From an uncultured Desulfobacterales bacterium (GTDB lineage: Bacteria; Desulfobacterota; DSM-4660; Desulfatiglandales; JALVZP01): a DNA stretch of 64,000 bases. Below the pieces are notes generated by a model. The model saw only the letters and a list, made by a program, of their open reading frames with translations. It ran no database searches and was not told where the DNA came from. The translations under genes and the position numbers were made by a program. The stretch spans positions 19,195 through 83,194 of the forward strand of contig CAYMUI010000030.1 in NCBI GenBank assembly GCA_964393645.1. The letters are read 5' to 3'. Shown piece after piece: positions 478 to 20,553 of the stretch. The number at the start of each line of letters is the position of its first letter. Position 1 is the first letter of the stretch.

Positions 478-1803
478 ATGAAGACCAAAGTCGAAGATCT
501 AAGTTCTGTAAAAAAACGCCTTTTTGTTGAAATAGAGCCAGAAGAGCTCGAAAAGAGGTTAAACAAAGTTTACTCAGAGTTAAAGAAGAGGGTGAGGCTG
601 AAAGGTTTTAGGCCAGGAAAGGTGCCTATAAAAATACTGGAGACCAGATTTGGTGATATTGTTAAACAAGAAGTGATAGATGACATAATAAAAAGCACAT
701 TTCCTGAAGCAGTTAAAGAGCTGAATACCTTGCCTTTAGCAGTTCCTTCCTTTGAATATGATAAAGACAGTTTAAGGAGAGGCCAGCCTTTTCAATATTC
801 TGCGATTGTAGAGGTAAAACCAGAAATTGAGGTAAAGGACTATATAGGTATAGAGCTAAAGAAGCCGAAGGTAGAGGTTACTGAAGAGATGGTGGAAAAT
901 GAACTAAAGAAAATAAGGGAAATGCACGGAGAGATTGTACCTATATCAGAACAAAGGGAAATAAAAAATGGAGACTATGTTAGACTCAACTACCAGGCTT
1001 TTTACAAAGGAAAACCATTAGAGAATTTAAAAAAAGAGAATGCCTTGATAAAAGTTGGAGCAAGAGATACTCATCCTCTTTTTGAAGCAGGGCTGGTAGG
1101 TTTGAAAAAAGGAGATGAAACCACGATATCTGTAGATTTTGAAGAGAATTATCCTAATCCAGAACTTGCCGGAAAAAATATAAAATTTGTGGTGCAGATC
1201 TTAGAGATAAATGAGATGAAACTTCCCGAGCTTACAGATGATTTTGTTAAAGAAAAGCTCAAGCTGGGTTCTGTGGAAGAACTAAAGGAGCAGATCAGAA
1301 AGAAACTTCTTGAACAAGAGGAAAAAAAGGCCGAATCAGAATTAAAGAGGAAGATTTTAGATTATCTTGTAGATAAAGTGGAAATGGAGATTCCGGAAGC
1401 ATTGATTGAAGCAGAACTGGAAAACATGATCGAAAATTTTAAGATAGAACTTAGGATGGGAGGATCAAATTTAGAAGCTTTTGGCTTAACCGAAGAAAAA
1501 CTAAGGGAGGACTTTAGGTCAGGGGCAGAAAAGAGGGTTAGGCAGATGCTCATTCTTTCCAAGATAGCAGACAATGAAAATATAGAAGTATCAGAGGAAG
1601 AATTAGATGAAGAGATAAAGAAGATAGCCGACATGACAGGCAAAGAACCTGATGAATTGAAGAAATTGTATGAAGAAAGAAACCTAATAGGCTATTTAAG
1701 AGTCAGGCTCAGGGAGCAAAAAACATTGAACTACCTTCTTCAGAATGCTAAAATTATAGAAACTCAAAAGGAGAGTTCAAATGCTCATCCCAATAGTAAT
1801 TGA
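478..1803 (+). CDS. tig: Trigger factor
   Basis: 441 aa. The N-terminal GFRPGKVP signature is the ribosome-binding loop of trigger factor. It has an acidic helical C-terminus and the conserved position upstream of clpP-clpX. An SD (aaggaaaggggg) precedes the ATG. Confidence 0.9.
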
Positions 1804-2377
1804 ACAGACCCCCAGGGGAGAAAGAGCATACGATATTTATTCCAGGCTTTTAAAAGACAGAATCGTCTTTTTAGGTCAAGAAATTACAGATGCAGTCGCA
1901 AATACTGTGATTGCTCAACTGCTTTTTCTGGAATCCGAGGATCCTGACAAGGATATTCATCTGTACATTAACTCACCTGGAGGACACATCACCGCTGGTA
2001 TGGCCATATATGATACTATGCAGTACATAAAGCCAGATGTAGTGACTATCTGCATAGGCCAAGGTGCAAGTATGGCTGCTCTGCTTTTAGCCGCAGGTGC
2101 AAAAGGTAAAAGGTATGCCTTGCCAAATGCTCGCATACTTATCCATCAGCCTATAGGAGGAGCACAAGGGCAAGCCACGGATATAGACATACATGCAAGA
2201 GAGATACTAAAGCTTAGAGACAGATTAAATCAGCTTTTGTCTTATCATACAGGGCAGGACATAGAAAAGATAAAAAGAGATACTGAAAGAGACTACTTTA
2301 TGGATAGTCAGGAAGCCTTAGAATACGGAATAATAGACAAAATTATAACAAAGAGAGAAATACCCCAACAAAAATAA
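1781..2377 (+). CDS. clpP: ATP-dependent Clp protease proteolytic subunit
   Basis: 198 aa. The N-terminus [23 protein letters not shown] and the segments GQGASMAA and ILIHQP are typical ClpP. Confidence 0.95.
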
Positions 2378-2393
2378 AAGGAAGGGATTCGTC

Positions 2394-3662
2394 ATGGCCA
2401 GGAGAAATCATAACAATAACAACAGCAACAACGAATTGTTTTGCTCATTTTGTGGAAAAAGTCAGGATGAAGTAAAAAAGTTGATCGCAGGGCCTTCAGT
2501 TTACATTTGTGACGAGTGTATCCAGTTGTGTAATGAAATTATTGCTGAGGAATATAGTAAAGAGGCTGAAGAATTCGATACAGAAGGTCTTTTGAAACCA
2601 TCTGAAATAAAAAAGATACTGGATCAGTATGTGGTTGGCCAAGAAAGGGCAAAAAAGATCCTTTCTGTAGCAGTTTACAACCACTACAAAAGGATTAATG
2701 CTCATATAGATACAAAGGATGTGGAAGTAGAAAAAAGCAATATCCTGCTTATCGGACCCACGGGATGTGGAAAAACACTTCTTGCCCAGACATTAGCAAA
2801 AATACTGGATGTTCCTTTCACTATCGCTGATGCTACTACATTAACAGAGGCAGGGTATGTGGGAGAAGATGTGGAGAATATAATCTTAAATCTCGTGCAA
2901 AACGCCGATTATGATATAGAGGCTGCGCAAAAAGGGATAGTTTATATAGATGAAATAGATAAGATTGCAAAAAAAACCGACAGTCCTTCTATAACAAGAG
3001 ATGTTTCTGGTGAAGGGGTCCAGCAGGCACTTTTAAAAATACTCGAAGGTACAATCGCTAATATTCCTCCAAAAGGAGGCAGAAAACATCCTCAACAAGA
3101 CTTCTTAAGAGTTGATACAAAAAACATATTGTTCATATGCGGTGGCACATTTACAGGAATAGAAGAGATTATAAAGAAGAGAATAAGTGGTAAGAGTATT
3201 GGTTTTGAGGCTGAAATAAAGAGCAGCAGCAAAGAGGAAGACTACAATAGATTGATCCCTCTTGTTCAGCCAGAAGATCTTATAAAATTTGGAATGATTC
3301 CTGAATTTATAGGAAGACTTCCCATAATTGCTACCTTAGAGGAGCTGAGTCTTGAGGCTATGGTAAAAATCCTCACAGAACCCAAGAATGCTTTAGTAAA
3401 ACAGTACAAAAAGATGTTCGAATTAGAAGGAGTGGATCTAAAGTTTACAGACGCAGCACTAAAGGCAATAGCAAGGAAGGCAAAAGAGAGAAAATCCGGT
3501 GCAAGAGGTTTGCGCTCTATATTAGAGTCTATAATGTTAGATGTAATGTTTGAGATTCCGTCCAGATCAGATGTAAAAGAGTGTATTATTGATGAAGGAG
3601 TTGTGACAAAGGGGGAAAAGCCCTTGCTTGTTTACGAGAAACAAAAGATCGAGTATGCGTAA
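2394..3662 (+). CDS. clpX: ATP-dependent Clp protease ATP-binding subunit ClpX
   Basis: N-terminal zinc ribbon CSFCGK...CDEC, Walker A GPTGCGKT and Walker B VYIDEIDK. It follows clpP. Confidence 0.95.
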
Positions 3663-3674
3663 AAGGGAGGGGAT

Positions 3675-6113
3675 ATGTTTACAATAATAAAGAGAAACAT
3701 GGAGATGTCACATTATCCCCTATTGCCACTTAGAGATGTGGTGGTTTTTCCAAATGTAGTAGTCCCTCTTTTTGTGGGCAGGAAGAAGTCTATCCGGGCC
3801 TTGGAATATGCAATGGCCCATAAGAAAGAGATATTTTTGGCTGCTCAGAAAGATGCCTCTGTAGACAATCCTTCCCCAAAGGATATTTATGCATACGGTA
3901 CTATCTGCACTGTGCTTCAGCTTCTAAGATTGCCAGATGGTACGGTTAAGACTTTAATAGAAGGCAAACATAGAGGCAAAATAGAGAGATATTTAGATGA
4001 AGATAAGTTCTTCATGGTAGAAGTGATCAAACTGTCTGACGAATATGAGTTTACCAAAGAGACAGAGGCACTTATCAGGAGTATAAGAGAAGAATTTCAG
4101 GAATACGCAAAGCTTTCTAATAAAATAAATCCAGAGGTTGTAGCTACCGTTTCTGCTATTGATGATCCGGTCCGTTTTTGTGATACAGTAGCAGGTCATC
4201 TTTCTCTCAAACTGAAGGACAAACAAGAACTGCTTGAAATACAAGATTTAAACAAGAGATTGGAAAAGCTGCTGGAAAAATTAAGTGGTGAAATAGAGAT
4301 CCTTAAGTTAGAGCACAGGCTTAAGGAAAGAGTGAAAAAGCAGATGGAGAAGAACCAGAGAGACTACTACCTGAACGAGCAGATGAGGGCTATTCAAAAG
4401 GAGATGGGTACTAAAGATGATTTTGCCAGTGATTTGGATGAATTAGAAAAAAGAATAAAAAGAAAAAAGCTTCCAAAAGAGGCACATGCGAGAGTAAGGC
4501 AAGAGTTTAAGAAGTTGAAGCTGATGGCCCCTATGTCTGCTGAGGCGACAGTGGTAAGAAATTACATAGACTGGATACTCTCTATCCCATGGTATGAAAA
4601 GTCTAAGGTAAAACTGGATATAAAAGAAGCAAAGAAGATCTTAGACGAAGATCATTATGGCCTTGAGAAACCCAAGGAGAGGATCTTAGAATACTTAGCT
4701 GTTCAACATCTTACCAAAAAGAACAGAGGTCCGATACTTTGTTTTGTTGGTCCTCCAGGGGTGGGCAAGACCTCTCTGGCAAAATCTATTGCCAGGGCAA
4801 CGGGTAGAAGATTCGTAAGATTGTCTCTTGGCGGAGTAAGAGATGAAGCAGAAATTAGAGGCCATAGAAGAACCTATATTGGTGCACTTCCAGGGAAGAT
4901 AATCCAATTCATGAGAAAGGCTGGTACCAGTAATCCTGTCTTTTGTCTGGATGAAGTGGATAAGATGAGCATGGACTTTAGAGGAGATCCTGCAGCTGCC
5001 CTTTTAGAGGTTTTAGATCCTGAGCAAAATTATGCTTTTAATGATCATTACTTAGATCTGGATTATGATCTTTCTGATGTTTTCTTTATAACCACTGCTA
5101 ACAGCTTGCACGGGATTCCACTGCCACTTCAGGATAGAATGGAGATTATCAGGATTCCCGGATATACAGAGTATGAAAAACTCAATATTGCTAAACGCCA
5201 TCTTATAAAAAAGCAAATAGAACTAAATGGTCTTAAACCCGAGAACATTCATTTTACTGATAACGCTATCTTAACGATAATAAGACATTACACAAGAGAA
5301 GCCGGAGTAAGAAATCTGGAAAGAGAGATTGCTTCAATATGTAGAAAAGTAGCAAAAAAGGTATTAGAGCAGGGAAGAGATATAAGAATAGTTATTACTT
5401 CTAAATCTGTACCAAAATACTTAGGTGTTCCCAGATTCCGCTATGGGAAAAGTGAAGAAAAAGATCTGGTGGGAGTTGCTACAGGGCTGGCATGGACAGA
5501 TACAGGAGGAGAGTTGCTTCAGATAGAAACTACTATAATGCCAGGAAAAGGTAATCTTGCTCTTACCGGGAAGTTAGGAGATGTGATGAAGGAGTCTGCT
5601 CAGGCAGCATTGAGTTATGTTCGTTCAAGATCAAGACAGTTGCGTTTACCAGATAATTTTTATGAAAAGATAGATATACACATACATGTGCCAGAAGGGG
5701 CTATTCCAAAGGACGGTCCATCTGCAGGGATAACTCTGGCTACTTCAATAGTTTCTGCTCTTACCAGAATCCCTGTCAGTAAAGATGTAGCAATGACAGG
5801 CGAAATAACATTAAGAGGCAGGGTTCTTCCGATAGGAGGTCTTAAAGAAAAGATTCTTGCGGCACACAGGGGTGGTATAAAGAAGGTTATTATCCCTTAT
5901 GAAAACAAAAAGGATATAGAAGAGATTCCTAAAAATATTCTGAAAAAAGTAGAATTGATCTTGGTAGAACATATGGATGAGGTTTTAAAACACAGCTTGG
6001 TTGTAGAGGAAGGAAAAACCATATTTGCTTCTGAACAGGAAATTCAGCCTTTCTGTGTGGAAGAGTTCTTTAAGGAACAGAAAAAAGAAACCGAAGAGAT
6101 AACTGCTCATTGA
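3675..6113 (+). CDS. lon: ATP-dependent Lon protease
   Basis: 812 aa. It has a LON N-domain ([10 protein letters not shown]), Walker [10 protein letters not shown] and the protease serine motif KDGPSAGIT. The true start may be an internal Met at codon 9 or 11. Confidence 0.95.
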
Positions 6114-6151
6114 CAAGAAAACAAATAATTGTTAAAAAAAATTAACTAAAC

Positions 6152-6223
6152 AGGCGGATAGCTCAGAGGGAGAGCATCGGCCTTACAAGCCGGGGGTCAC
6201 GGGTTCAAATCCCGTTCCGCCTA
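6152..6223 (+). tRNA. tRNA-Val (anticodon TAC)
   Basis: Hand-folded cloverleaf: acceptor AGGCGGA/TCCGCCT, D stem GCTC/GAGC, anticodon stem TCGGC/GCCGG with loop CTTACAA, T arm ACGGG-TTCAAAT-CCCGT. 72 nt; CCA is not encoded. Confidence 0.9.
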
Positions 6224-6232
6224 TACAAAAGC

Positions 6233-6306
6233 GGGGGCGTAGTTCAGCTGGTTAGAACGCCGGCCTGTCACGCCGGAGGTCGCGAGTTCGAGTCTCGTCG
6301 TCCCCG
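6233..6306 (+). tRNA. tRNA-Asp (anticodon GTC)
   Basis: Hand-folded cloverleaf: acceptor GGGGGCG/CGTCCCC (one G-U), D stem GTTC/GAAC, anticodon stem CCGGC/GCCGG with loop CTGTCAC, T arm GCGAG-TTCGAGT-CTCGT. 74 nt; CCA is not encoded. Confidence 0.9.
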
Positions 6307-6696
6307 TCAATCATCTTTTTTCTTTATTAACAACCAGTTATTTTCTTTTCCCTTCATTTTTATGAGTGCAAAAGCGCCTTTTAATCTATTTCCTTTTAGT
6401 CTGAAGACGATCTTTCCGTTTTCGAGTTCTTTCAGAGGATCATCACCTTCTATCAGCTCATACTCTCCTTTATCCCATATCAATACCTTTCCGGCACCGT
6501 AATGACCCGGAGGAATTTCTCCTTCAAAATCTATGTAGTCAATAGGATGGTCTTCCACCATAACGGCGAGTCTTTTATCTTTTGGATTCATAGAGGGCTG
6601 CTTAGGTACTGCCCATGATTTCAGCACCCCTCCCATTTCGAGTCTTAGGTCATAATGTAATTTTCTTGCGTGATGTTCTTGAATTACAAATCTCAT
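6307..6696 (-). CDS. Stand-alone LigD-type 3'-phosphoesterase domain protein
   Basis: 129 aa. RFVIQEHHARKLHYDLRLEMGGVLKSWAVPKQPS matches the characteristic start of the DNA ligase D phosphoesterase (LigD_N) domain. SD aggaggataaccc precedes the ATG. Confidence 0.7.
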   Translation of the reverse strand: MRFVIQEHHARKLHYDLRLEMGGVLKSWAVPKQPSMNPKDKRLAVMVEDHPIDYIDFEGEIPPGHYGAGKVLIWDKGEYELIEGDDPLKELENGKIVFRLKGNRLKGAFALIKMKGKENNWLLIKKKDD

Positions 6697-6763
6697 AGGG
6701 TTATCCTCCTGTTGTCAGTTGTGATAAAATAGCTTTTGTAATCTTAATATATCGTGAGAAGTT

Positions 6764-8176
6764 ATGATAGCTTTTATGAAGACTGAAAACCTGAATAAAT
6801 TGGCTCTTGTTACGGAAAACGATCGGTTTACTTATAAAGAATACCTGAAGAGTGTTTCAGCTTGCAGCAAAAAACTTACTGAACTGGGCATAGGTAAAGG
6901 CAAAAAAGTTGCTATCATCTCTGAAAATAGCCCCGAATATGTACTGACAATTCTTTCTGTTCTTAACATCGGCGCTGTTTGTATTCCAATAAATGTGAGA
7001 TGGCCTGCTGTTCAAATAGAAGAGGCATTAAAAAAGGTGGGATGCGATTTATTGGTGATTGAACACAGAAGCTTGAAGGTAAATTTGCGGTGCAAGTCTG
7101 TTTATATGGATCAGCTAATCCGGTTAAAAATGGGGTCTGCTTTCGAAGGGATAGACCCTGATCTTGAAAGAGATGCCACGATTATTTTTACATCTGGTAG
7201 CTTGGGAGAACCAAAGCCCGTATTACATACCTTAGGAAATCACTACTACAGTGCTCTCGGCTCCAACTCTAACATATCTCTTGCTCCAGGGGATGTGTGG
7301 GGTGTATTTTTGCCTTTGTATCATGTTGGAGGACTGAGCATAATATTCAGAACCCTTATTTCCGGATCAGCTATAGCGATACCGTCTAAAAAGAAATCTA
7401 TTTCTGAAGCAATAAAGACAATGAATATTACCCATCTGTCCCTTGTTCCCACCCAACTCTATAGGATGCTGAAAAACAAAGAAGACATAAAGGCTCTCCG
7501 CTCTGTCAAAGCGATACTGTTAGGAGGAGCACCTGTAAGAGAATCCCTCATAAGAAAAGCAAAGGAGTATGATCTTCCTATATATACCACTTATGGATGT
7601 ACGGAGATGGCATCTCAGATTACCACCACAAGACCAAATGATACTATTTCACATCTTCTTACCTCAGGAAGGCTTCTTCCATACAGGGAATTGAGTATAA
7701 GCAAGGATGGGGAGATAATGGTGAAAGGAAAAACGCTTTTTAAGGGTTACGCATATAAGGACAAGCTTGTTCTTCCTTTTGTGAAAGACGGTTGGTTTAA
7801 AACAGGAGATCTCGGATACTTAGACAAAGATGGCTATCTTACTGTCTACGGAAGAAAGGATAATATGTTTATTTCTGGTGGAGAAAACATTCAACCAGAA
7901 GAGATCGAGCAAAGGCTTACCCAGATAGAAGGCGTGATAGATGCAGTGGTTGTTCCGGTAGAGGATGAGCAGTGGGGTCAAAGGCCTGTTGCTTTTGTTT
8001 ATAAGGAAGGAGAGATAAGTGAGTCACAAATAAAAAATGAGTTGGAAAAAGTGCTTCCCAAGTATAAAATACCTGACCGTGTATTTTTTTTGCCAAAAAA
8101 TATCTATGAGAAAGGATTAAAGTTGAACCGTGAATACCTCAAAGGAATGGCAAAGAGAATTGTGGAAAGAACTTAA
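6764..8176 (+). CDS. AMP-dependent acyl-CoA synthetase/ligase (MenE-like 2-succinylbenzoate-CoA ligase size class)
   Basis: 470 aa with adenylate-forming motifs [17 protein letters not shown] and [19 protein letters not shown]. No other menaquinone genes are in the window, so the substrate is left open. Confidence 0.6.
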
Positions 8177-9065
8177 CAAGTTTTATGGTAGAATAGGAAG
8201 AAACGATCTCTGTCCCTGTGGAAGTGGTTTGAAATACAAAAAGTGTTGTTTAAGGAAGGGATATATTTCTATAAGCAGGGAAAGGTTAAAAGAAATATAT
8301 TTCAAGCGGTATGGAATAAGACTCAAAGAAGAAAAAGATATAGAAGGTATAAGAAAAGCGGGTGAGCTCGCGTTAAAAATATTAAATGTGGTGGAAAACA
8401 GCCTCAGGGTCGGGATGCAGACAAAAGAGATAGACGAGATTGTACATGAACTTACAGTAAAAAATGGTGCGATTCCCGCTCCTTTAAATTACAGAGGTTT
8501 CCCTAAAAGCGTTTGTGTTTCTGTGAATGAAGAAATATGCCATGGGATACCAGGAGAGAGAGTGCTTCAGGACGGAGATATAGTAAATGTAGATGTCACC
8601 CCGATTCTGAACGGTTATTATGCAGATGTAAGTAAGACCTTTTTTGTGGGAACTCCTAAAGAAGAAGCAAAAAGGCTGGTAGCAATTACTAAGGAATGTC
8701 TTAAAAGGGGAATTTCCATGGTAAAACCTGGCAACAGGATAGGAGACATAGGGTGGGCTATAAGTAAGTACGCTGAAGAGCAGGGATGCTCCGTAGTAAG
8801 AGAGTTTGTTGGACATGGAGTTGGGTTTGAATTTCACGAACCTCCTCAGATACCGCATTATGGTAGAAAAGGGGAAGGGATAGTTCTTGTTCCTGGAATG
8901 GTGTTTACTATAGAGCCCATGATAAACCTTGGTGGTAGAGAAATAAGAATCCTTGAAGATGGATGGACCGCAGTGACTGCTGATGGTTCCCTTTCAGCTC
9001 AGTTTGAACAGACCATCCTTGTAACGGAAGAAGGATGCGAAAGTCTTACTCCATATGAACTTTAG
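8130..9065 (+). CDS. map: Type I methionine aminopeptidase with N-terminal SEC-C zinc motif
   Basis: It has a MetAP pita-bread core ([28 protein letters not shown]) preceded by [13 protein letters not shown]. The start is uncertain: GTG 8130 overlaps the upstream gene by 47 nt, and TTG 8160 is an alternative. Confidence 0.85.
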
Positions 9066-9960
9066 CCTCTACGAGCTTATAAAGGAAAAGGCAAAAGGCT
9101 TGGGTTTTGCAAAAGTAGGTTTTTTAAGACCTCAAAGACCTCTTTTTTTTGATAGTTTTCTGAAGTGGCTTAAAGACCACAAAAATGCCGATATGAAATG
9201 GCTTAACAAGTACTTGGATATAAGGGAGGATCCGAGCAAGCTCCTTAAAGGATGTAGAACTATTATCTCGCTCGCATACCCGTACTCTTGTGATATACCA
9301 ACAAGTCCCGATGGGTTTTGTGCTGCCAGATATACAGAGCCTCTCAAAGAAGATTATCATACGAGATTGAGAGCTTTATGTAGAGAATTGAGCAAAGTTA
9401 TTATTGACAGGTTTCCAACAGCAAAAATAAGAATATGTGTTGATTCTGCGCCTGTTTTAGAAAGAAGTATAGCTTATATGTCCGGCGTAGGATTTATCGG
9501 AAAAAATAATATGCTTATTGTACCTGAATATGGCTCGTATGTTTTTCTTTCAGAGATATTTACCACTGCACCCATTGACTTTCCTAAACCAGAACCTGTT
9601 TCCATTCAGTGTGGTGAGTGTAACAGGTGTATAGATGCTTGCCCTACAGGAGCACTTAAAGACGCTCATTGTTTTGATGCAAGACTCTGTCTCTCTTACA
9701 TTACCATAGAGTATAAAGGTGATATAAAAGAAGAATTTTCAAAAATGCTTTACCCTTTTTTCGTAGGATGTGATAAGTGTCAGCAGGTCTGCCCTTTTAA
9801 TCGTAAAGGGAGAAGATATATCTGTCTGCCCACATCTGAAGAATTCTTAAAAATGGACGAGGTAAATTTTAAAAAGCAATTTGGAAGAACTTCCTTAGCC
9901 AGAGCTGGCATAAAAAAAATAAAGAGAAATCTCTTGACAATTAAACAATATTTGGTTTAA
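9055..9960 (+). CDS. queG: Epoxyqueuosine reductase
   Basis: 301 aa. It has two ferredoxin-type clusters ([15 protein letters not shown] and [11 protein letters not shown]) and a QueG-like N-terminal region (GFAKVGF...). Confidence 0.75.
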
Positions 9961-9961
9961 T
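9934..9961 (+). promoter_or_regulatory. Putative sigma-70-type promoter of the BCAA leader
   Basis: TTGACA (9934-9939), 16 nt spacer, TTTAAT (9956-9961). It lies in the last codons of queG, about 25 nt upstream of the leader ORF. Confidence 0.4.
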
Positions 9962-9984
9962 TGTATCCTACTTAGGATCTGATT

Positions 9985-10056
9985 ATGAAAAGAACGGACG
10001 CCATTATCAGACAAGTATTTTTACTTATAGTAGGTGGGCTTAAACAGCCGGCCTGA
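9985..10056 (+). CDS. Branched-chain amino acid leader peptide (23 aa, MKRTDAIIRQVFLLIVGGLKQPA)
   Basis: Hand translation; the ORF is too short for the track. AGGA lies 7 nt upstream of the ATG. Eight of 23 codons are Ile, Leu or Val, clustered as II..V.LLIV..L. The stop codon TGA lies inside attenuator segment 2. Confidence 0.55.
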   Translation: MKRTDAIIRQVFLLIVGGLKQPA

Positions 10057-10119
10057 TAATGGCGTTTTTAAGACATTGTTAGATCCGTTATCAGGCCATC
10101 TGATAACGGATCTTTTTTT
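9998..10119 (+). promoter_or_regulatory. Transcription attenuator with alternative 1:2, 2:3 and 3:4 RNA structures
   Basis: Segment 1 (9998-10010, acgccattatcag) is perfectly complementary to segment 2 (10053-10065, ctgataatggcgt). Segment 2 (10050-10062) can instead pair with segment 3 (10085-10097; 13 bp with one G-U). Segments 3 and 4 form the terminator. Confidence 0.65.
10081..10119 (+). terminator. Intrinsic terminator of the BCAA leader
   Basis: agatccgttatcag (10081-10094), loop gccat, ctgataacggatct (10100-10113). The U-tract spans 10113-10119. It ends 14 nt before the cimA ATG. Confidence 0.7.
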
Positions 10120-10133
10120 AAGGGGGAGTGGTT

Positions 10134-11753
10134 ATGCAAAAGCAGGTTATTATTTATGACACAACACTCAGAGACGGGACTCAAGGAGAGTATATAAGCC
10201 TGTCTGCAGAAGATAAACTCAGGATTGCAAAAAAACTTGATGAGTTCGGGATTCACTACATAGAGGGTGGCTGGCCAGGTTCTAACCCAAAAGATGCCCG
10301 TTTTTTTGAAATGGCAAAGCTTGCTACTTTTAAGAACGCGAAGTTGACAGCTTTTGGAAGTACGAGAAAAGCAAATACAAAAGTGGAAGAAGATGAAAAC
10401 ATAAAGGCGTTACTGAATGCAGGTGTCAATACTGTTACTATATTTGGAAAAAGCTGGGATCTGCATGTAACAGAAATCTTAGCAACCACTTTGCAGGAAA
10501 ATCTCAACATGATCTATGAATCTGTAGCCTATCTTAAAGAAAAAGGCAAAGAAGTAATATACGATGCGGAACACTTTTTTGATGGTTACAAAAATAATAA
10601 AGAGTATACTCTGAAGACCATAGAGACAGCAATAAAAGCTGGTGCCGACTATATTGTTTTCTGCGATACCAACGGGGGTGCATTGCCTCATGAAATAGAA
10701 GCGATATTAAAAGAAGTGCTTCCTAAAATAGATATTTACACAGGAATACACGCCCATAATGATGGTGGATTAGCTGTGGCAAATTCTCTTACTGCTGTAA
10801 GATGCGGGGTAGATATGGTTCAAGGCACAATAAACGGTTACGGCGAAAGATGTGGTAATGCAGATCTCATCCCTATAATTGCTAACCTACAGCTAAAAAT
10901 GGGATACAAATGCATCCCTTCTGAAAAACTAAAGCATCTTACAGAATTATCTCGTTTTGTAAGCGAAATAGCTAACATGCCTCCTCTTCCTCAAAGGCCG
11001 TTTGTAGGAAAAAGCGCATTTGCTCATAAGGCAGGAGTTCATGTAAGTGCCATAATAAAGAATCCATCTGCTTATGAACATATTGATCCTTTTCTTGTGG
11101 GAAATAGGAGAAGAGTGCTTGTATCTGACCTTTCCGGAAAAAGCAATATAGAATACAAGGCAAAGGAGCTGGGTGTTGAACTTTCAGACAGGAAGTACAG
11201 TAAAAAGATAGTAGAAGAAATAAAAAGATTGGAAGACAAAGGTTATTATTTCGAAGCAGCAGAGGGTTCTTTATTTGTACTTATGAAAAAATTTGCCGAG
11301 AATTTTAAAGAACCTTTTAAGCTGCAGGCTCTTAGGGTAAATATTGAAAAGAATGGCTCTGAAGCGAGCGCATGTCATGCAACAATAAAGATTGCTGTGG
11401 GAGATGAAGAAGAAATTACAGCGGCAGAGGGAGATGGTCCTGTAAATGCGCTTGATAATGCGCTTAGAAAAGCCCTTTCAAGGTTTTTCCCTAATATAAA
11501 CGAAATGAAGCTTGTTGACTTTAAAGTAAGAGTAATAGACGGGGCTGATGGTACAGCAGCTAAGGTAAGGGTACAGATAGAGTCAAGAGATGAAAACGAG
11601 ATGTGGACCACCATAGGTGTTTCTGAAAACATAATAGAAGCAAGCTGGCAGGCTTTGGTGGACAGTATATTGTACAAGTTAATAAAAGACAGAGAAAAAG
11701 AATTTAGGTCTAAGAAGGAGATAGACCATGCCAGAGAAGGTAATAATATTTGA
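10134..11753 (+). CDS. cimA: (R)-citramalate synthase (LeuA-family, long form)
   Basis: [22 protein letters not shown]...[12 protein letters not shown] and a length of about 540 aa with a LeuA-dimer C-terminus fit the citramalate synthase clade. ATG 10134 is preferred over track GTG 10128 because of the SD aagggggag. Confidence 0.75.
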
Positions 11754-13266
11754 TACAACTCTCAGAGACGGGGAACAGTCTCCCGGAGCAAGCATGAATG
11801 AGGCAGAAAAATTGAGGATTGCTATGCAATTGGAAAAACTGGGAGTGGATGTGATAGAAGCTGGCTTTCCAGCAGCCTCCCAAGGAGAGTTTGAAGCAGT
11901 GAGACTTGTTGCTTCTAAGTTGAGTAATACCCAGGTTTGTGCCCTTGCCAGAACCTCAAAAGAGGACATAGATAAGGCATGGGCAGCAATTAAAGACGCT
12001 GTTAATCCGAGGATACATACATTCATAGCCACTTCAGACATCCATATGCAGTATAAGTTAAGAATGACCAAAGAACAGGTGATAAAGACAGCTGTTGAAG
12101 CTGTTAAGTACGCAAAGAAATTTACAGATAATGTGGAATTTTCTTCTGAAGATGGAACCAGAAGTGATAGAGACTTTTTATGTAAGGTTTTTGAAGCAGT
12201 CATAGATGCTGGCGCCACCACTATAAACCTTCCAGATACAGTGGGCTACATCTTACCAGACGAATATTATGAACTCATAAAATATGTAAAGCAGCACACT
12301 CCTAACATCCATAAAGTAATCTTGAGTGTCCACTGCCATAATGACCTCGGTCTTGCTACTGCAAACACTCTTGCTGGTCTCAGAGCAGGAGCAAGACAAG
12401 CAGAGGTAACTATAAATGGTATCGGTGAAAGAGCGGGTAACACTTCCCTCGAAGAAGTTGTTATGTGTATATACACTCACAAAGATAAGCTGGGACTTTC
12501 TACCGGAATAAATACAAAGTACATATATCCTACAAGCAGACTTGTGAGTATGATTACAGGTATTGTGGTTCAGCCCAACAAAGCTATTGTAGGAGCCAAT
12601 GCGTTCGCTCATGAAGCCGGGATACATCAGGATGGCGTACTTAAACATAAGCTTACCTATGAAATAATTGAACCGGAGACCATAGGATTAGACAGAAGCA
12701 AGCTCGTCTTAGGAAAGCATTCAGGAAGACATGCATTTAAGAAGAAGCTGGAGGAGATGGGATATGAATTAACAGAAGACGAGTTGAACAGGGTATTTGA
12801 GAAATTTAAAGAGCTTGCTGATAAAAGAAAGGAGCTACAAGATGAAGACATAGAAGCATTGGTGGCAGAAGAGGTTCTTAGAGTACCTGATATTTATCAA
12901 TTGGAGTACTTAAATGTTGTAAGTGGCACAGGCACTGTACCAACAGCAACGGTGAAGCTGAAGGTAAGAGGCGAGCTACTTCAAGGTGCAGGTTTTGGGG
13001 TTGGGCCTATAGATGCTACCTACAATGTGATCGCCAGTCTGACCGGCACAAAATCTAAGCTTCTGAGATTTTCGGTCAATTCTATTACAGGGGGAATGGA
13101 TGCACAGGGTGAGGTTACTGTGAGACTTCAGGAAGACGGTATCGTTGCTCTTGGAAAAGGGGCTGATCCAGACATTATTGTGGCAAGCGCAAAGGCATAC
13201 ATAAACGGATTAAACAGGTTGGAATATATGAAGACAAATCCCCCTAAGAAGGAGCAAACCCCTTAA
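11728..13266 (+). CDS. leuA: 2-isopropylmalate synthase
   Basis: 512 aa. [28 protein letters not shown] and a LeuA allosteric C-terminal domain. Confidence 0.9.
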
Positions 13267-13281: not shown

Positions 13282-14541
13282 ATGGGAATGACCATCACAG
13301 AAAAGATCTTGGCGCTTCATTCTGATAAGAAAGAAGTAAGACCAGGAGAGTTGATCCAGGCTAAAGTGGATTTCGCTTTTGCCAATGACATTACCGCACC
13401 ACTTGCAATAAGAGTGTTTAAAGAGCTGGGATGGGATGATGTCTTTGATAAAGACAGAATTGCTCTTGTACCAGATCATTTTGTTCCAAATAAAGATATC
13501 CCATCTGCTCAGCAGGTAAAATTTATCAGAGAGTTTGCAAGAGAGTACTCTATTAAACACTTTTTTGAATTAGGAGAGGCAGGAATAGAACATGTGCTTT
13601 TACCCGAACTCGGCTTGATTTCACCCGGAGATCTGGTCATTGGTGCAGACAGTCACACCTGTACTTATGGAGCATTAGGGGCATTTTCTACAGGAGTGGG
13701 AAGTACGGATTTAGGTGTTGTAATGGCAACAGGAGAGATATGGTTAAGAGTGCCCGAAACAATAAAGGTGATCTTCAGTGGAAGCGTAAATAAATGGGTA
13801 GGTGGTAAAGACCTTATACTGTCGTTGCTTGGTATAATAGGGGTTGAGGGTGCTGTATATAAAAGTCTTGAGTTTTCAGGAAGTGCGGTAAAACAGCTTC
13901 CCATGTCTGATAGATTTACAATGGCAAATATGGCAGTAGAGGCAGGAGCAAAAAATGGTATTTTTGAGCCAGATGAAAAGGTTAGAGATTACTTGAGTAA
14001 AAGTGGGGCAAAGGAAGGAATATATCTTCAAAGTGATTCCGATGCAGAATATGATAAGGTAATAGAAATAGATACAACCAAGATAGAGCCTCAAGTAGCA
14101 TGTCCTCATTCACCTGACAATGTAGTTCCAGTAAGTGAAGTAAAAGGTGTAAAAATTGATCAGGCCTTTATTGGCTCTTGCACAAATGGAAGAATAGAGG
14201 ATCTAAGGATAGCAGCTCAACTCTTAAAAGGAAGAAAAGTAGCAAAAGGGGTTAGACTTATTATTATACCCTCTACCCCTTACATATATAAAAGAGCAAT
14301 AGAGGAGGGAATCATAAGTATCTTTCTGGATGCAGGGGCTGTAATTGGTCCTCCATGCTGTGGGCCCTGTCTGGGAGGCCATATGGGAATATTAGCAGAA
14401 GGAGAAACCGCAATTTCTACAACCAACAGGAATTTCAAAGGCAGAATGGGGCACCCTGACAGTAAGGTATACCTCGCGAATCCTGCTGTAACAGCAGCCT
14501 CCTCCATTGCAGGTGAAATTATTTCTCCTGAGGAGTTGTAA
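13282..14541 (+). CDS. leuC: 3-isopropylmalate / 2-methylmalate dehydratase large subunit
   Basis: 419 aa aconitase-family protein. Cluster-ligand segments are GADSHT and GSCTNGR...CGPCLG. Confidence 0.9.
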   Translation: MGMTITEKILALHSDKKEVRPGELIQAKVDFAFANDITAPLAIRVFKELGWDDVFDKDRIALVPDHFVPNKDIPSAQQVKFIREFAREYSIKHFFELGEAGIEHVLLPELGLISPGDLVIGADSHTCTYGALGAFSTGVGSTDLGVVMATGEIWLRVPETIKVIFSGSVNKWVGGKDLILSLLGIIGVEGAVYKSLEFSGSAVKQLPMSDRFTMANMAVEAGAKNGIFEPDEKVRDYLSKSGAKEGIYLQSDSDAEYDKVIEIDTTKIEPQVACPHSPDNVVPVSEVKGVKIDQAFIGSCTNGRIEDLRIAAQLLKGRKVAKGVRLIIIPSTPYIYKRAIEEGIISIFLDAGAVIGPPCCGPCLGGHMGILAEGETAISTTNRNFKGRMGHPDSKVYLANPAVTAASSIAGEIISPEEL

Positions 14542-14543
14542 TC

Positions 14544-15032
14544 ATGCATATAGAAGGAAGGGTGTGGAAATTTGGAGATCATATAGATACTGATCTTATA
14601 ATTCCTGCAAGATTTCTTAACACATCAGACGAAAGGGAGCTTTCAAAAGGCTGTTTTGCTGATCTAAGACCAGAGTTTTCAAAAAGTGTGAATAAAGGGG
14701 ACATCATTGTAGCAGGAACTAACTTTGGATGTGGATCATCCAGAGAACATGCACCGGTTGCTATTAAAGCGTGTGGCATTTCTGTAGTAATTGCAAAAGG
14801 ATTTGCCAGGATATTTTTTAGAAACGCTTTCAACATAGGGCTTCCACTTCTGGAATGTGAGGAATTGGTGGATCAGATAAAAGACGGAGACAAGCTAAAA
14901 GTAGATCTTTTAAAAGGAGAAATAATTGACTTACAAACCGGAAGGGTCTATTATGCCAAACCAATCCCTGACTTTATGATGGAGATTATTAAAGCGGGTG
15001 GACTCGTAAATTATGTTAAGTCAAAAAAATAA
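14544..15032 (+). CDS. leuD: 3-isopropylmalate dehydratase small subunit
   Basis: 162 aa aconitase swivel domain ([26 protein letters not shown]). It directly follows leuC. Confidence 0.9.
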
Positions 15033-15040
15033 GAAGGGGG

Positions 15041-16741
15041 GTGTTTTCCATTAAACTTACAGGAGCTCAAATACTATTTAAGGTTTTACAGGAAGAAGGG
15101 GTAGAGGTTATATTTGGATATCCTGGTGGAGCGGTTTTGGATATTTATGATGAAATGGGCAAGCATCAGGATATAAAACATATTTTGGTGAGACATGAAC
15201 AGGCTGCGGTTCATGCAGCAGATGGATATGCCAGGGTATCAGGAAAAGTAGGGGTTTGTATTGCTACATCTGGTCCAGGAGCGACAAATACAGTTACGGG
15301 TATAGCAACTGCGTATATGGATTCAATCCCTTTAGTAGTATTTACCGGGCAGGTTCCCACAAAGCTTGTGGGAAGTGATGCTTTTCAGGAAGTAGATATA
15401 GTAGGAATCACCAGATCCTGTACCAAACACAACTATCTTGTGACCGATGTAAATGACTTAGCAAGAATAGTGAAGGAAGCATTTTATATAGCCAGAACTG
15501 GCAGACCAGGTCCTGTTCTGGTAGATATACCGAAGGATGTTCAGCAAGCTGTTACTAAGTACGAACCTATAGGAGAAGTAAAACTTAGATCCTATAAACC
15601 TGTTTACAAACCAAATGTAAAACAGCTAAGAAAAGCCATTTCTTTGATAAAACGTTCTAAAAAGCCTTTAATACTTTCAGGAGGCGGCGTAGTTCATTCA
15701 AGGGCATACGAAGAATTAACAGTATTTGCAGAAAAGATCAAATCGCCCGTTGCTTCTACACTGATGGGGCTTGGGTCTTTCCCTCCTGACTCTCCTCTCT
15801 GGCTTGGTATGGTAGGAATGCACGGAACTTATGCTGCAAATATGGCCACAGGTGAATGTGATCTTCTCATTGGAATCGGTGTAAGATTTGACGATAGAGT
15901 TACTGGAAAAGTAGACACTTTTGCACCTAACGCAAAAATCATCCATATAGACATTGATCCTACCTCTATACAAAAGAATGTGCCTGTTACAGTGCCTGTA
16001 GTGGGAGACTGCAAGATAGCACTTTCTACACTAAATAAGCTCTTAGATGAAGAAGGCTTAGGTGATGTTGATGAAATGAGAAAAGAGTGGCTGGATAGGA
16101 TAGAAGAGTGGAAAAAAAGCAAGCCTCTCACCTATAAGCAGGAAAAAGATGAGATAAAACCTCAATATGTTATCGAGACCCTTTATGAGCTTACCAAGGG
16201 AGAAGCAATAATTGCTACCGAGGTGGGTCAGAATCAGATGTGGACTGCTCAGTTTTACAAGTTTCATAAGCCAAACCATTTCATTACATCTGGTGGTCTT
16301 GGTTGCATGGGATACGGATTTCCTGCATCAATAGGAGCAAAGGTGGCGTGTCCAGACAAAATTGTTGTGGACATTGCAGGAGATGGAAGTATTCAAATGA
16401 ACATACAAGAGCTGGCTACTGCAGTGCAAAATAATATTCATGTAAAGGTAATCATATTAAATAACAGCTACTTGGGTATGGTTAGACAGTGGCAGGAACT
16501 CTTCTATGAAAAGAGATATACCCATACATATCTTTCATATGCACCTGATTTTGTAAAATTAGCAGAGGCTTATGGAGCTGTCGGAATGAGAGCTACCAAA
16601 CCTGAGGAAGTGAAGCCTATTTTAGAAAAAGCCCTTTCTATTCAAAATGTGGTTTTGGTGGACATAAGAATACCCCCTGAAGAAAAGGTTTTTCCTATGG
16701 TTCCAGCAGGTTCCCCAATAACAGAAATGATATTGGTATAA
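15041..16741 (+). CDS. ilvB: Acetolactate synthase large subunit
   Basis: 566 aa ThDP enzyme ([44 protein letters not shown]). GTG start. Confidence 0.9.
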
Positions 16742-16752
16742 AGGAGAGGGAT

Positions 16753-17256
16753 ATGGCAATGAATAAAGATAAAAAAGAACAAAAACATATCTTTTCACTT
16801 CTTGTAGAAAATCAGCCAGGGGTTTTATCTCGTATAGCAGGGCTTTTTTCAGCCCGGGGATACAACATAGAGAGCCTCTGTGTTGCTCCTACTACAGATC
16901 CTGAAGTATCCAGAGTAAGCCTTGTTACAAAAGGGGATGAGTTTATACTTGAGCAGATAAAAAAACAGCTTAACAAACTTATAAATGTAATAAAAGTGTA
17001 TGACTATACCGAAGTCCCTTATGTACAGAGAGATCTCGCACTTATAAAGGTAAGAGCAAAGGCAGAAAATAGAGCAGAAATTCTCAGAATTGTGGATATA
17101 TTCAGAAGTAGGGTTGTAGATGTGAGTCCTGAATACTACACCGTAGAGATTACGGGAGACGAAGACAAGATAGAGGCATTTTTAAGACTTCTTAAGCCAA
17201 TGGGAATAAAGGAGATCGCAAGAACAGGCCCTGTTGCATTGGCAAGGGAAGTGTAG
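16753..17256 (+). CDS. ilvN: Acetolactate synthase small (regulatory) subunit
   Basis: 167 aa. It has an ACT domain ([24 protein letters not shown]) and follows ilvB. Confidence 0.9.
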
Positions 17257-17261
17257 AAGCC

Positions 17262-17909
17262 TTGAAAAAAGATAGAGGCAAGTTTATCACCTTTGAAGGA
17301 ATCGATGGGTGTGGAAAATCTACCCAGGCTAAAAGGCTTTTACTCCATTTAAACAAAATCGGGATTCCTGCTCTACTTACCTTAGAGCCAGGGGGTACAA
17401 AGATTGGCTCTTACATAAGAAGAATACTTTTAGATCCAAAAAACAAAGATATCTCCGAGCTAACAGAACTTTTTTTGTATTTAGCTGACAGAAGCCAGCA
17501 CTTAAAAGAGGTGATAGAGCCTTCCCTAAGAAAAGGTGTTTGGGTTATAAGTGACAGATTTTATGACGCAACTTTGGCTTATCAAGGATTTGGCAGAGGT
17601 ATATCCAAAGATTTTATTCTCATGCTGAATGACAAAATATGCGGAAATATAAAGCCAGATGTGACTTTTTTGTTAGACTGTCCCGTTGAGATCGCAATGA
17701 AAAGAAGAAGCAAGAGGGAGTTTGATCAAAATCAGCTCAGATTTGAACAGGAATCCATAAGTTTTCATGAAAGGGTAAGGAAAGGATATCTTTGGATAGC
17801 AGAGCAATTCAGAGAAAGGGTTGTTCTTGTAGATGCTACATTATCTGTGGAAGACATAGAGAGATTTGTTTTTAACAAGATAAAACAGTTTTTGGAGAGT
17901 GGAGCATGA
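17262..17909 (+). CDS. tmk: Thymidylate kinase
   Basis: FITFEGIDGCGKSTQ P-loop and DRF...AYQG motif. TTG start. Confidence 0.9.
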   Translation: MKKDRGKFITFEGIDGCGKSTQAKRLLLHLNKIGIPALLTLEPGGTKIGSYIRRILLDPKNKDISELTELFLYLADRSQHLKEVIEPSLRKGVWVISDRFYDATLAYQGFGRGISKDFILMLNDKICGNIKPDVTFLLDCPVEIAMKRRSKREFDQNQLRFEQESISFHERVRKGYLWIAEQFRERVVLVDATLSVEDIERFVFNKIKQFLESGA

Positions 17910-19501
17910 TTCTTGGTCTTATGAGAAAACATGCAAAATCGTGGCTTATAAAGTTCATGATTGCGATAATATGCCTGGTTTTTGTGCTTTATTTTGGATA
18001 TTCCTTTAGAGCTCAAAGGGGGCTTAGGATAGCGAAAGTAAATGGGGAGGTAATAACACGAGCCGATTATCAGAATGAATATGACAGGCTATACAGGATG
18101 TTCAGACGTATGTATGGAGATTCATGGAACGAAAAGCTTGCAAGGTCATTAGGACTAAAAAGGATCGCACTTGAAAACCTGATAGATCAGAGACTTATGG
18201 CTCAGGAGGCAAAGAGGCTCGGGATAACAGTAAATGTCCGAGAGATACGAGAAGCAATAATGAAGTATCCTGCATTTCAGAGAAACGGGGTGTTTGATAT
18301 CAGACTTTATAAGGCACTTTTAAGAGAAAACAGGATAGATCCAGAAGAATTCGAAGATGGAGTAAAGAAACAGATACTAAACGACAAGTTAAAAGAGTTT
18401 TTACTGTCTTTTATGAATGTCACGGATCAGGAAGCCTTTGATTATTTTAAATATAAGAATGAGAGGATTAAAGTAAGCTTTGTCCTTTTTAAACCTGACA
18501 TGTTTAAGAATAGGGTAAAGATAAATGAGAATATGGTAAAGGAGTTCTTTAAAAAAAATAAAGAAAGATATAGAGTCCCCGAAATGGTAAAGTGCGTGTA
18601 TATAGTGATAGACCCTAAGGAATTTGAGGCAAAGATAAAGCCTACTGAAAAGGAAATAAAGCAGTATTATAATTTTCACATGGATGACTACAAATTGCCC
18701 GGTCAAAAAAGCCCGCCTCCTCTCAAAGAGGTTAAAGATAAGGTGATAAGGGATCTTATAGAGGAAAAAAGCATAGAACTTGCACAAGAAAGAGGTTATG
18801 AGCTTATAGATAAAATGCCTTACGATATATCCTTAGAAGATTATGCTAAGTACAACCATCTAAAAATCGGATATACTGACTTTTTTTCTATTGAGGACGA
18901 TACAATTCCAGAAATCGGGGGAGACAGAAAAACAGTAGAGACCCTTTTTTCTTTAAAAAACAAAGACATAAGCGATCTTATAATGCTGAGAGGAAAGTTT
19001 TACATATTTCAGATAAAAGAAAGGAGGTCTTCTTTTATTCCAAAATTTGAAAGCGTGTATGATCAGGTAAAAGAGGATTTAATAGATAAGTTGGCAATGA
19101 AAGAGGCAGAAAAAGAAGCAAGATTGTTTTTAAAAAAGGTGAGAAAAAAGGATGAACTTTGGTTAGAAATGATAGAGAAAAACGGGTTAAAAGTAAGAAA
19201 AACCGATTTTTTTAAAAGATCTGAACCGATTCCCTACATAGGAGGTAACAGGGAGTTAAAAGAGATCTTATTTTCTCTTGATAAGCACAACAGATACCCA
19301 AAAGATATATATGTAACAGAAGAAGGAGCTTATGTGATAAGGTGGGAGGCAAGAGAAGAGCCGGATAAGGAAGAATTTCAAAAACAAAAGCACACCTTAA
19401 AAACAGAGCTTGCACGTATTAAAAGAGACAGAGCATTTGATCTGTGGGTAAAAGCTCTGAGAAGATCGGCTAAAATCGAATACCTGAATCCTATCGAATG
19501 A
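17906..19501 (+). CDS. PpiD/SurA-N-like periplasmic chaperone, membrane anchored
   Basis: 531 aa. It has an N-terminal TM helix (WLIKFMIAIICLVFVLYFGY) followed by a SurA-N-like helical region. I could not see a canonical parvulin catalytic segment. Confidence 0.55.
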   Translation: MILGLMRKHAKSWLIKFMIAIICLVFVLYFGYSFRAQRGLRIAKVNGEVITRADYQNEYDRLYRMFRRMYGDSWNEKLARSLGLKRIALENLIDQRLMAQEAKRLGITVNVREIREAIMKYPAFQRNGVFDIRLYKALLRENRIDPEEFEDGVKKQILNDKLKEFLLSFMNVTDQEAFDYFKYKNERIKVSFVLFKPDMFKNRVKINENMVKEFFKKNKERYRVPEMVKCVYIVIDPKEFEAKIKPTEKEIKQYYNFHMDDYKLPGQKSPPPLKEVKDKVIRDLIEEKSIELAQERGYELIDKMPYDISLEDYAKYNHLKIGYTDFFSIEDDTIPEIGGDRKTVETLFSLKNKDISDLIMLRGKFYIFQIKERRSSFIPKFESVYDQVKEDLIDKLAMKEAEKEARLFLKKVRKKDELWLEMIEKNGLKVRKTDFFKRSEPIPYIGGNRELKEILFSLDKHNRYPKDIYVTEEGAYVIRWEAREEPDKEEFQKQKHTLKTELARIKRDRAFDLWVKALRRSAKIEYLNPIE

Positions 19502-20541: not shown

Positions 20542-20553
20542 TGGGAGGGAACC

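Follow-up and report, generated by a model that had tools for sequence, protein, structure and literature searches.

Leader-peptide attenuation of branched-chain amino acid (BCAA) genes is known from the ilvBNC leaders of Corynebacterium (PMC11857589, PMC10272879), while the ilv-leu operon of S. aureus is preceded by a leucine-rich attenuator peptide (PMC5794164). In 2010, Naville and Gautheret wrote that, before their own cases in Firmicutes, they knew of leader peptides shown to exist in Proteobacteria and Actinobacteria only (PMC2965389). In the searchable part of the literature no leader peptide is described 5' of cimA or in Desulfobacterota; the survey of Lopatovskaya et al. 2010, as cited in PMC4833913, may cover delta-proteobacteria, and an earlier prediction is therefore possible. 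The locus described here lies in a stretch of 64,000 nucleotides (the window) of contig CAYMUI010000030.1 from an uncultured Desulfobacterales bacterium, where a short leader separates queG from a biosynthetic operon beginning with cimA, the gene of citramalate synthase. Judged from its sequence and from comparison with relatives, this leader very probably attenuates transcription in the ribosome-mediated (leader-peptide) manner of the trp, his and ilv leaders, and so controls the read-through from a sigma-70-type promoter into cimA-leuA-leuC-leuD-ilvB-ilvN. A preliminary description of the same DNA had read it as a trp/leu-style attenuator, and this reading is supported by the conservation of the helices, by the frame of the open reading frame (ORF) and by a family of leaders rich in isoleucine (Ile), leucine (Leu) and valine (Val), with a kinetic switch and an Ile core as refinements. 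The elements of the leader are as follows.

9934-9939, + strand: -35 hexamer TTGACA, within the 3' end of queG and followed by a 16-nt spacer.
9956-9961, + strand: predicted -10 hexamer TTTAAT, overlapping the queG stop codon TAA (9958-9960), with a TG at 9953-9954 (extended -10).
9974-9977, + strand: Shine-Dalgarno (SD) sequence AGGA of the leader, 7 nt before the ATG at 9985.
9985-10056, + strand: leader ORF of 23 codons plus TGA, product MKRTDAIIRQVFLLIVGGLKQPA, with 8 Ile, Leu or Val (I/L/V) codons.
9996-10010, + strand: segment 1, the 5' arm of the anti-antiterminator, where 9998-10010 is ACGCCATTATCAG.
10015-10032, + strand: hydrophobic control-codon block V F L L I V (codons 11-16).
10032-10035 with 10051-10054 and 10037-10040 with 10046-10049, + strand: inner hairpin of the minimum free energy (MFE) structure, stacked within helix 1:2 and sequestering the GGCC of segment 2.
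10050-10067, + strand: segment 2, which holds the TGA and pairs with segment 1 (through 10053-10067) or with segment 3 (through 10050-10062).
10081-10097, + strand: segment 3, comprising the terminator 5' arm (10081-10095) and the antiterminator 3' arm (10085-10097).
10099/10100-10113, + strand: segment 4, the terminator 3' arm, with the U-tract T7 directly after it (10113-10119).

Three helices can be drawn from these segments. The 9998-10010 part of segment 1, which contains the Ile codons 7 and 8 (ATT ATC, 10003-10008), is the exact reverse complement of 10053-10065, and the resulting hairpin has an energy of -29.8 kcal/mol in isolation. Helix 2:3 joins 10050-10062 with 10085-10097 in 13 bp including one G-U (-21.5 kcal/mol, isolated), and helix 3:4 joins 10081-10094 with 10100-10113 in 14 bp, a 15th G-U pair being possible (-21.1 kcal/mol, isolated); the U-tract, which begins on the last paired base, ends 14 nt before the cimA ATG (10134). 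As helix 2:3 takes 10 of the 14 bases of the terminator 5' arm, helices 2:3 and 3:4 are mutually exclusive. The preliminary description had given these three pairings, the terminator with its 7-nt U-tract, the SD-preceded 23-codon ORF and the position of its stop codon (TGA, 10054-10056) inside segment 2, and all of them proved exact when checked against the sequence. The leader fold is far from random, with an MFE for 9968-10125 of -56.5 kcal/mol versus -31.7 +/- 3.7 kcal/mol in dinucleotide shuffles (z = -6.7; none of 200 as good). Within 110 nt there are four occurrences of the 11-mer CCGTTATCAGG or its complement (10001+, 10052-, 10085+ and 10099-), compared with an expectation of about 9 loose matches over all 64 kb.

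A homologous leader lies directly 5' of cimA in 25 related loci (CimA 64-91% identical), each of which contains a homologous in-frame ORF. The CimA-guided scans covered one genome per species and the JGI metagenomes, where the closest CimA was 71% identical; they yielded 18 loci with a homologous element, including metagenome-assembled genomes labelled Desulfobacteraceae, Desulfatiglandales, Syntrophales, Smithella and Thermodesulfobacteriota. Relatives with CimA 82-91% identical were found by protein search, and their contigs, then inspected, carry window-type leaders (L163, MRKISAIIRRVLLVVIIGGLKQPA; L161, MRERSAIINRALLIIVVGRLKLPA; L165, MRRNAIIIMLLVVIGGLKWPA; L167, MFNKNAVIKIILLLVIIGRLKWPA; L169, MITKNAIIIIKMILLWVLVGRLKWPA; L174, MITKNAIIKIILLLVLVGRLKWPA; L173, MSTKNAIIEVILLLVLVGRLKWAA). 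In all seven window-type relatives the ORF stops at a TGA within segment 2, while in the other, long-type subfamily the stop codon, as read from the sequences, lies 2-5 nt after segment 2. An SD sequence (GGAG/AGGA) is found at the equivalent place in L169, L173 and L174, and a weaker one in L161 and L167. The gene 5' of the leader differs among the close-relative contigs, each of which has another neighbour, and the element therefore goes with cimA and not with queG. Relatives without the leader have cimA as an internal operon gene that begins 11-80 nt after ilvC. This holds for the clade next in CimA similarity (60-64% identity; L007, L009, L010, L014, L017, L092 and L095), where cimA has no leader. 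A search of the window and of 160 loci with a covariance model (R1) of the stretch from segment 2 to the U-tract detected members in the CimA clade only and a single copy in the window. The remaining matches to R1 were rejected: some were the palindromic terminator read on the reverse strand, and others were weak terminators that follow cimA in Paenibacillus.

The helices are conserved in these relatives with compensatory changes. For helices 2:3 and 3:4, 27 sequences were aligned to a model holding the terminator only (alignment A4). Helix 2:3 is 92.0% paired, versus 15-48% in slid controls, and contains four pairs with compensatory change, values which none of 500 shuffles reaches; helix 3:4 is 96.8% paired and contains five compensatory pairs. 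One column of segment 3 co-varies with its partner in segment 2 as well as with that in segment 4. The full-length MAFFT alignment of 19 leaders (A1) aligns segments 2-4 well but misplaces segment 1 of the window; for this reason the pairs of helix 1:2 were counted on sequences extracted by motif anchors and on an alignment of 8 close sequences (A3). Helix 1:2 is 77% paired in 19 diverse leaders, versus 16-58% when slid, with 2 of 2000 permutations reaching 77%; in the 8 close sequences its sub-helices are 100% and 91.5% paired, where changes occur solely via G-U. A3 shows hardly any variation in the -35 hexamer, in segments 1-4 or in the inner hairpin, and the RNAalifold consensus of the same 8 sequences consists of helix 1:2, the inner hairpin and helix 3:4. 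Conservation of the peptide and of the alternative pairings, on which the preliminary description had staked its reading and for which it had proposed a covariation analysis upstream of cimA, is thus found in 25 loci, with three helices kept.

Two further structures were noticed among the more distant members. The long-type leaders (37-41 codons; L001 at 250-280, L004, L081, L003 and others) contain an internal hairpin, GCAACAGGGATAC..GTATCCTTGTTGC, recognised by eye, which encodes A-T-G-I-L..S-L-L-L and replaces the inner hairpin of the window type; it shows compensatory changes, such as GCGGTAGGGA..TCCCTACTGC in L081 and ..CCCCTGTTGC in L004. In L002 (2789-2800) and L003 (150-170), the best partner of segment 2 is the SD/start region of the leader (UCAGGAUUGGG and ACCAGGCAUGG), not the Ile-codon segment, at -16 to -18 kcal/mol, which hints that helix 1:2 could also gate the translation of the leader in some members.

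The ORF bears the marks of a translated frame whose product is subordinate to the RNA. Indels inside it are of 3 or 6 nt and those outside it of 1, 2, 4 or 5 nt, while L005 and L083 differ by five synonymous codons and one non-synonymous codon. Segment 2 is read as GCC TGA in the window type and as CTG ATA ATG ACN TAA in the long type, with its RNA sequence kept; it is therefore the RNA, and no function of the protein, that determines which residues end the peptide. In the pooled leaders, Ile makes up 21%, Leu 17.6% and Val 9.7% of the residues (48% in sum, versus a background of 25%), while phenylalanine, methionine and tryptophan together account for 4.7%; the Ile content peaks at 11 of 25 residues (P = 4e-6). 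Between segment 1 and the inner hairpin, the close relatives have a block of 6-8 I/L/V codons, which varies freely in sequence and order while remaining I/L/V.

The codon content of the leaders follows the genes downstream. Two leaders with 8 and 11 Ile codons (L011 and L089) and one Leu codon each precede cimA alone, the next genes being tsaC and rne, and two with 7 and 10 Ile codons (L086 and L091) and 0-1 Leu precede cimA-leuC(-leuD-leuB), which contains no leuA. Leaders with Ile plus five Val codons (L008 and L090) precede cimA-ilvD-ilvB. Those with a run of Ile and a run of Leu codons (L001-L005, L081, L083, L085 and L087) precede cimA-leuA-leuC, as does the Ile-rich L006 with just three Leu codons, and the mixed I/L/V leaders of the window group precede cimA-leuA-leuCD-ilvBN. 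Leaders followed by leuA have a Leu fraction of 0.20 (n = 18), versus 0.057 in those without leuA (n = 6; Mann-Whitney P = 3.6e-4, phylogeny uncorrected). As the leader is absent where cimA follows ilvC and its codons match the operon, the pattern is as expected if ribosome stalling is the signal. The universal signal of the family is predicted to be Ile, through codons inside segment 1, with Leu and Val codons added according to the products of the operon; such an Ile signal fits CimA as the Ile-committed enzyme of the pyruvate pathway. It is conceivable, and somewhat short of probable, that the window holds one member of an undescribed 'cimA leader' family, widespread in Thermodesulfobacteriota, in which a conserved RNA switch has had its control codons repeatedly re-tuned to the operon content (Ile; Ile and Val; Ile and Leu; or Ile, Leu and Val).

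The leader may be envisaged to work as follows, where the site of initiation, the pausing of the polymerase, the footprints of the ribosome and the amino-acid response are all predicted features. RNA polymerase would start near 9968 and transcribe the leader, and, once helix 1:2 and the U-rich stretch after it had been made, would probably pause until a ribosome loads on the 23-codon ORF. With charged tRNA-Ile, tRNA-Val and tRNA-Leu in ample supply, the ribosome would reach the TGA and cover segment 2, and in an untranslated leader segment 2 would remain locked in helix 1:2; in both cases segments 3 and 4 would form the terminator, and transcription would stop at the U-tract (10113-10119). In the folding calculations a ribosome mask at the stop codon covers segment 2, and helix 3:4 forms. 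A ribosome stalled at the Ile codons (10003-10008) or in the V-F-L-L-I-V block would occlude segment 1 and open the inner hairpin; segment 2 would then pair with the emerging segment 3, the terminator would be blocked and the polymerase would enter cimA. In the calculations, a nascent transcript that reaches 10098 or 10105 adopts helix 2:3 if segment 1 is masked. The window contains TTTTT (10066-10070) directly 3' of helix 1:2, and most close relatives are rich in U at the equivalent place (5 of 8 have GGCGTTTT). This U-run is a candidate pause site that may synchronise ribosome and polymerase, or may be a weak first terminator.

Several observations weigh against this attenuator reading or restrict it. 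With segment 4 present and segment 1 masked, the terminator state wins by about 6.6 kcal/mol at equilibrium; a 30-nt ribosome mask moved over the full leader flips it to the antiterminator at one position only, and the terminator is also what forms when the mask covers the Ile codons. The comparison of energies suggested in the preliminary description thus upholds the mutually exclusive helices and does not uphold an antiterminator at equilibrium. Because the terminator wins at equilibrium and only folding of the nascent transcript flips the structure, antitermination must be a kinetic trap, as it is in the classical trp leader. In addition, a footprint of 30 nt masks segment 1 only from I7, I8 and V11 (perhaps also L13), and stalls further 3' would rely on steric exclusion of helix 1:2. 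About five clades underlie the correlation of leader codons with operon genes, which is uncorrected for phylogeny, and all the relatives are metagenome assemblies. The -10 hexamer, although a 5/6 match to TATAAT, lacks the A at position 2 (-11). The peptide of the window itself is likewise a weak witness, as 8 of its 22 residues after Met are I/L/V versus a background of 25.2% in the proteins of the window (P = 0.17) and 3 of 22 are Ile (P = 0.31), the lowest I/L/V enrichment (36%) among 26 leaders; with P = 0.17, its codon bias is no evidence by itself. The window by itself gives weaker evidence than the preliminary description had implied: the count of 8 I/L/V codons stands, and the fit of a mixed I/L/V leader to an operon feeding three amino acids is supported by the family-wide match of codons and operons, not by the window peptide alone.

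The same figures speak for an explanation in which the structure is real and the sensor of the window is partly decayed, so that it reports the general translation of the leader (e.g. a global slowing of ribosomes, or Ile only) and not a multivalent Ile/Leu/Val supply. Beyond the low I/L/V content, the window peptide has phenylalanine where its relatives show I/L/V and a block of 6 codons versus 7-8 in L163, L167 and L174, and it offers just three BCAA codons at which the footprint covers segment 1. This explanation is nevertheless unlikely, as both Ile codons of segment 1 are intact, 8 I/L/V codons remain and relatives whose peptides are richer have exactly the same RNA segments; moreover, the trp leader of E. 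coli functions with two control codons.

In a second, very improbable explanation, the ORF would be the gene of a small hydrophobic (membrane) peptide with a function of its own and would end in its own terminator, and the hairpins would be incidental or merely end the small gene or queG. The peptides, mainly the 37-41-residue forms, do resemble single hydrophobic helices, the ORF is under coding constraint and the terminator also lies downstream of queG. However, the hydrophobic residues are nearly all I/L/V, with little phenylalanine, methionine or tryptophan, and their order is not conserved; the C-terminal frame shifts between the subfamilies while the RNA of segment 2 is conserved; and helix 2:3, which would be useless to a plain terminator, is kept with compensatory changes. 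The element also always adjoins cimA while its upstream neighbours vary, its residue make-up follows the products of the operon, and the peptides match no Pfam or NCBIfam family.

Still less credence can be given to a switch that is independent of translation, operated by a protein, a tRNA (as in a T-box) or a small-molecule ligand, with a fortuitous ORF. The ilv-leu operons of other phyla are in part under T-boxes or other RNA sensors, and one close relative has kept the terminator without the peptide. In L171 (1860-2000) and similarly in L172 (CimA 83%), a TTGACA promoter and the CCGTTATCAGG terminator are kept 5' of cimA, while the leader ORF and segment 1 are lacking and only ATGTTTCAGAAAGGAGGTTAA and a segment 2 remnant, CTGATAGC, are left; the terminator can therefore persist without the peptide, which also counts against the attenuator reading, and the element of these two loci may be a decayed or otherwise regulated attenuator. 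On the other side, no Rfam T-box or riboswitch match is found even at E<=10, the RNA between the helices is short and unconserved save for the amino-acid class of the ORF, and the frame, start codon and I/L/V content of the ORF are kept in 25 relatives. A plain terminator of queG was rejected, as helix 2:3 is conserved with compensatory changes and the element adjoins cimA with varying upstream neighbours.

The ribosome-mediated attenuator thus preferred is predicted to have its own promoter, which lies within the final 27 nt of queG (ORF 9055-9960). A near-consensus promoter TTGACA-N16-TTTAAT had been proposed at this place; its coordinates are correct, while the -10 hexamer of the window fails the rule of the promoter scan, which did not list it because of the missing A at -11. 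A perfect TTGACA is found in 25 of the 26 leaders, 51-103 nt 5' of the leader ATG, and the T and A columns of the -10 are invariant in the alignment of 8 close relatives. The transcription start at about 9968 is predicted from the position of this promoter. Upstream (478-9960), the window contains tig, clpP, clpX, lon, tRNA-Val(TAC) (6152-6223) and tRNA-Asp(GTC) (6232-6308), followed by genes of an AMP-binding enzyme and of a methionine aminopeptidase with a SEC-C motif and by queG. The genes placed under the leader are listed below; the names queG, cimA, leuA, leuC, leuD, ilvB and ilvN, already used in the preliminary description, are all supported by NCBIfam matches above cut-off.

10120-10136, + strand: ribosome-binding site of cimA, AAGGGGGAG, with the ATG at 10134, as read from the sequence.
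10134-11753, + strand: cimA, citramalate synthase (TIGR00977, 768 bits versus a cut-off of 450).
11728-13266, + strand: leuA, above the NCBIfam cut-off.
13282-14541, + strand: leuC, above the NCBIfam cut-off.
14544-15032, + strand: leuD, above the NCBIfam cut-off at the subfamily level.
15041-16741, + strand: ilvB, above the NCBIfam cut-off.
16753-17256, + strand: ilvN, above the NCBIfam cut-off.

The CimA profile match starts at residue 5 of the product read from 10134. The genes cimA and leuA overlap by 26 nt (11728-11753), as they do in L161 (3610-3635) and L163 (1948-1973), which suggests translational coupling. Downstream of ilvN (17256-21612), tmk, a ppiC-like gene, ychF and a semialdehyde dehydrogenase gene of the asd/argC family follow on the same strand, separated by gaps of a few nt or overlapping. 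A simple scan downstream of the leader found no terminator on the + strand before 21843; tmk, the ppiC-like gene, ychF and asd may therefore share the transcript, and the transcript of the attenuator may extend past ilvN.

In the curated databases, the Rfam families searched (Leu_leader, Trp_leader, His_leader, Thr_leader, leu/phe leader and T-box) give no match at E<=10 in 9000-11000, and at the gathering score the whole window yields two tRNAs only; Pfam-A and NCBIfam contain no leader-peptide family matching any of 7 leader peptides, that of the window included, at E<=10. The mechanism is a textbook one, and the conserved family is absent from the databases searched. The analysis annotates a regulatory element and a 23-codon gene missed by gene callers and by Rfam, and it assigns a predicted Ile/BCAA-responsive control to the citramalate route of Ile synthesis in a phylum known almost solely from metagenomes. 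The covariance model R1, or a full-length version of it, can be used to map the family and to extend Rfam. The understanding of the attenuation mechanism itself is unchanged, and the operon-matched codon repertoire is the sole feature likely to be of specialist interest: the family is a compact case in which the RNA switch stays fixed while its amino-acid specificity is apparently altered by codon swaps as operon genes come or go, and, if this is true, it offers a natural series for the evolution of attenuator specificity through edits of a few codons in a fixed RNA scaffold.

Among known systems, the nearest functional analogue is the leader of ilvGMEDA (ilvL) in E. coli and Salmonella. There, too, control codons for Ile, Leu and Val are mixed within a short ORF, four segments can form helices 1:2, 2:3 and 3:4 as mutually exclusive alternatives, an intrinsic terminator directly precedes the first biosynthetic gene, and the operon serves more than one BCAA. 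The two share no detectable homology of sequence or structure, and they differ in the length of the ORF (23 codons here versus 32 in ilvL), in the first gene (citramalate synthase, of the pyruvate route to Ile, versus ilvG) and in the phylogenetic setting (Thermodesulfobacteriota versus Gammaproteobacteria). With trpL of E. coli the leader has in common that the control codons lie in segment 1, that the ORF stops at segment 2 or within it, and that helix 1:2 serves as anti-antiterminator and likely as pause hairpin, while helices 2:3 and 3:4 compete kinetically with 3:4 favoured thermodynamically; it differs in the amino acid sensed, in sequence and in its helices, which are here 13-15 bp long and much more stable (-21 to -30 kcal/mol). 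The Leu_leader family (RF00512) and the leu and ilvB leaders of Proteobacteria also attenuate BCAA genes through a leader peptide, with a run of regulatory codons before the terminator. However, these leaders and those of Corynebacterium and S. aureus are independent families of other phyla and are mostly specific for Leu or Val, whereas Ile is universal here and cimA comes first; none of their models matches the present leader. The T-box leaders of ilv-leu and aminoacyl-tRNA synthetase operons resemble the switch proposed here in sensing uncharged tRNA, in switching between terminator and antiterminator and in the type of operon controlled. T-boxes bind the tRNA through a specifier loop and a T-box sequence, neither of which is present here, and the sensor proposed for the cimA leader is instead the translating ribosome.

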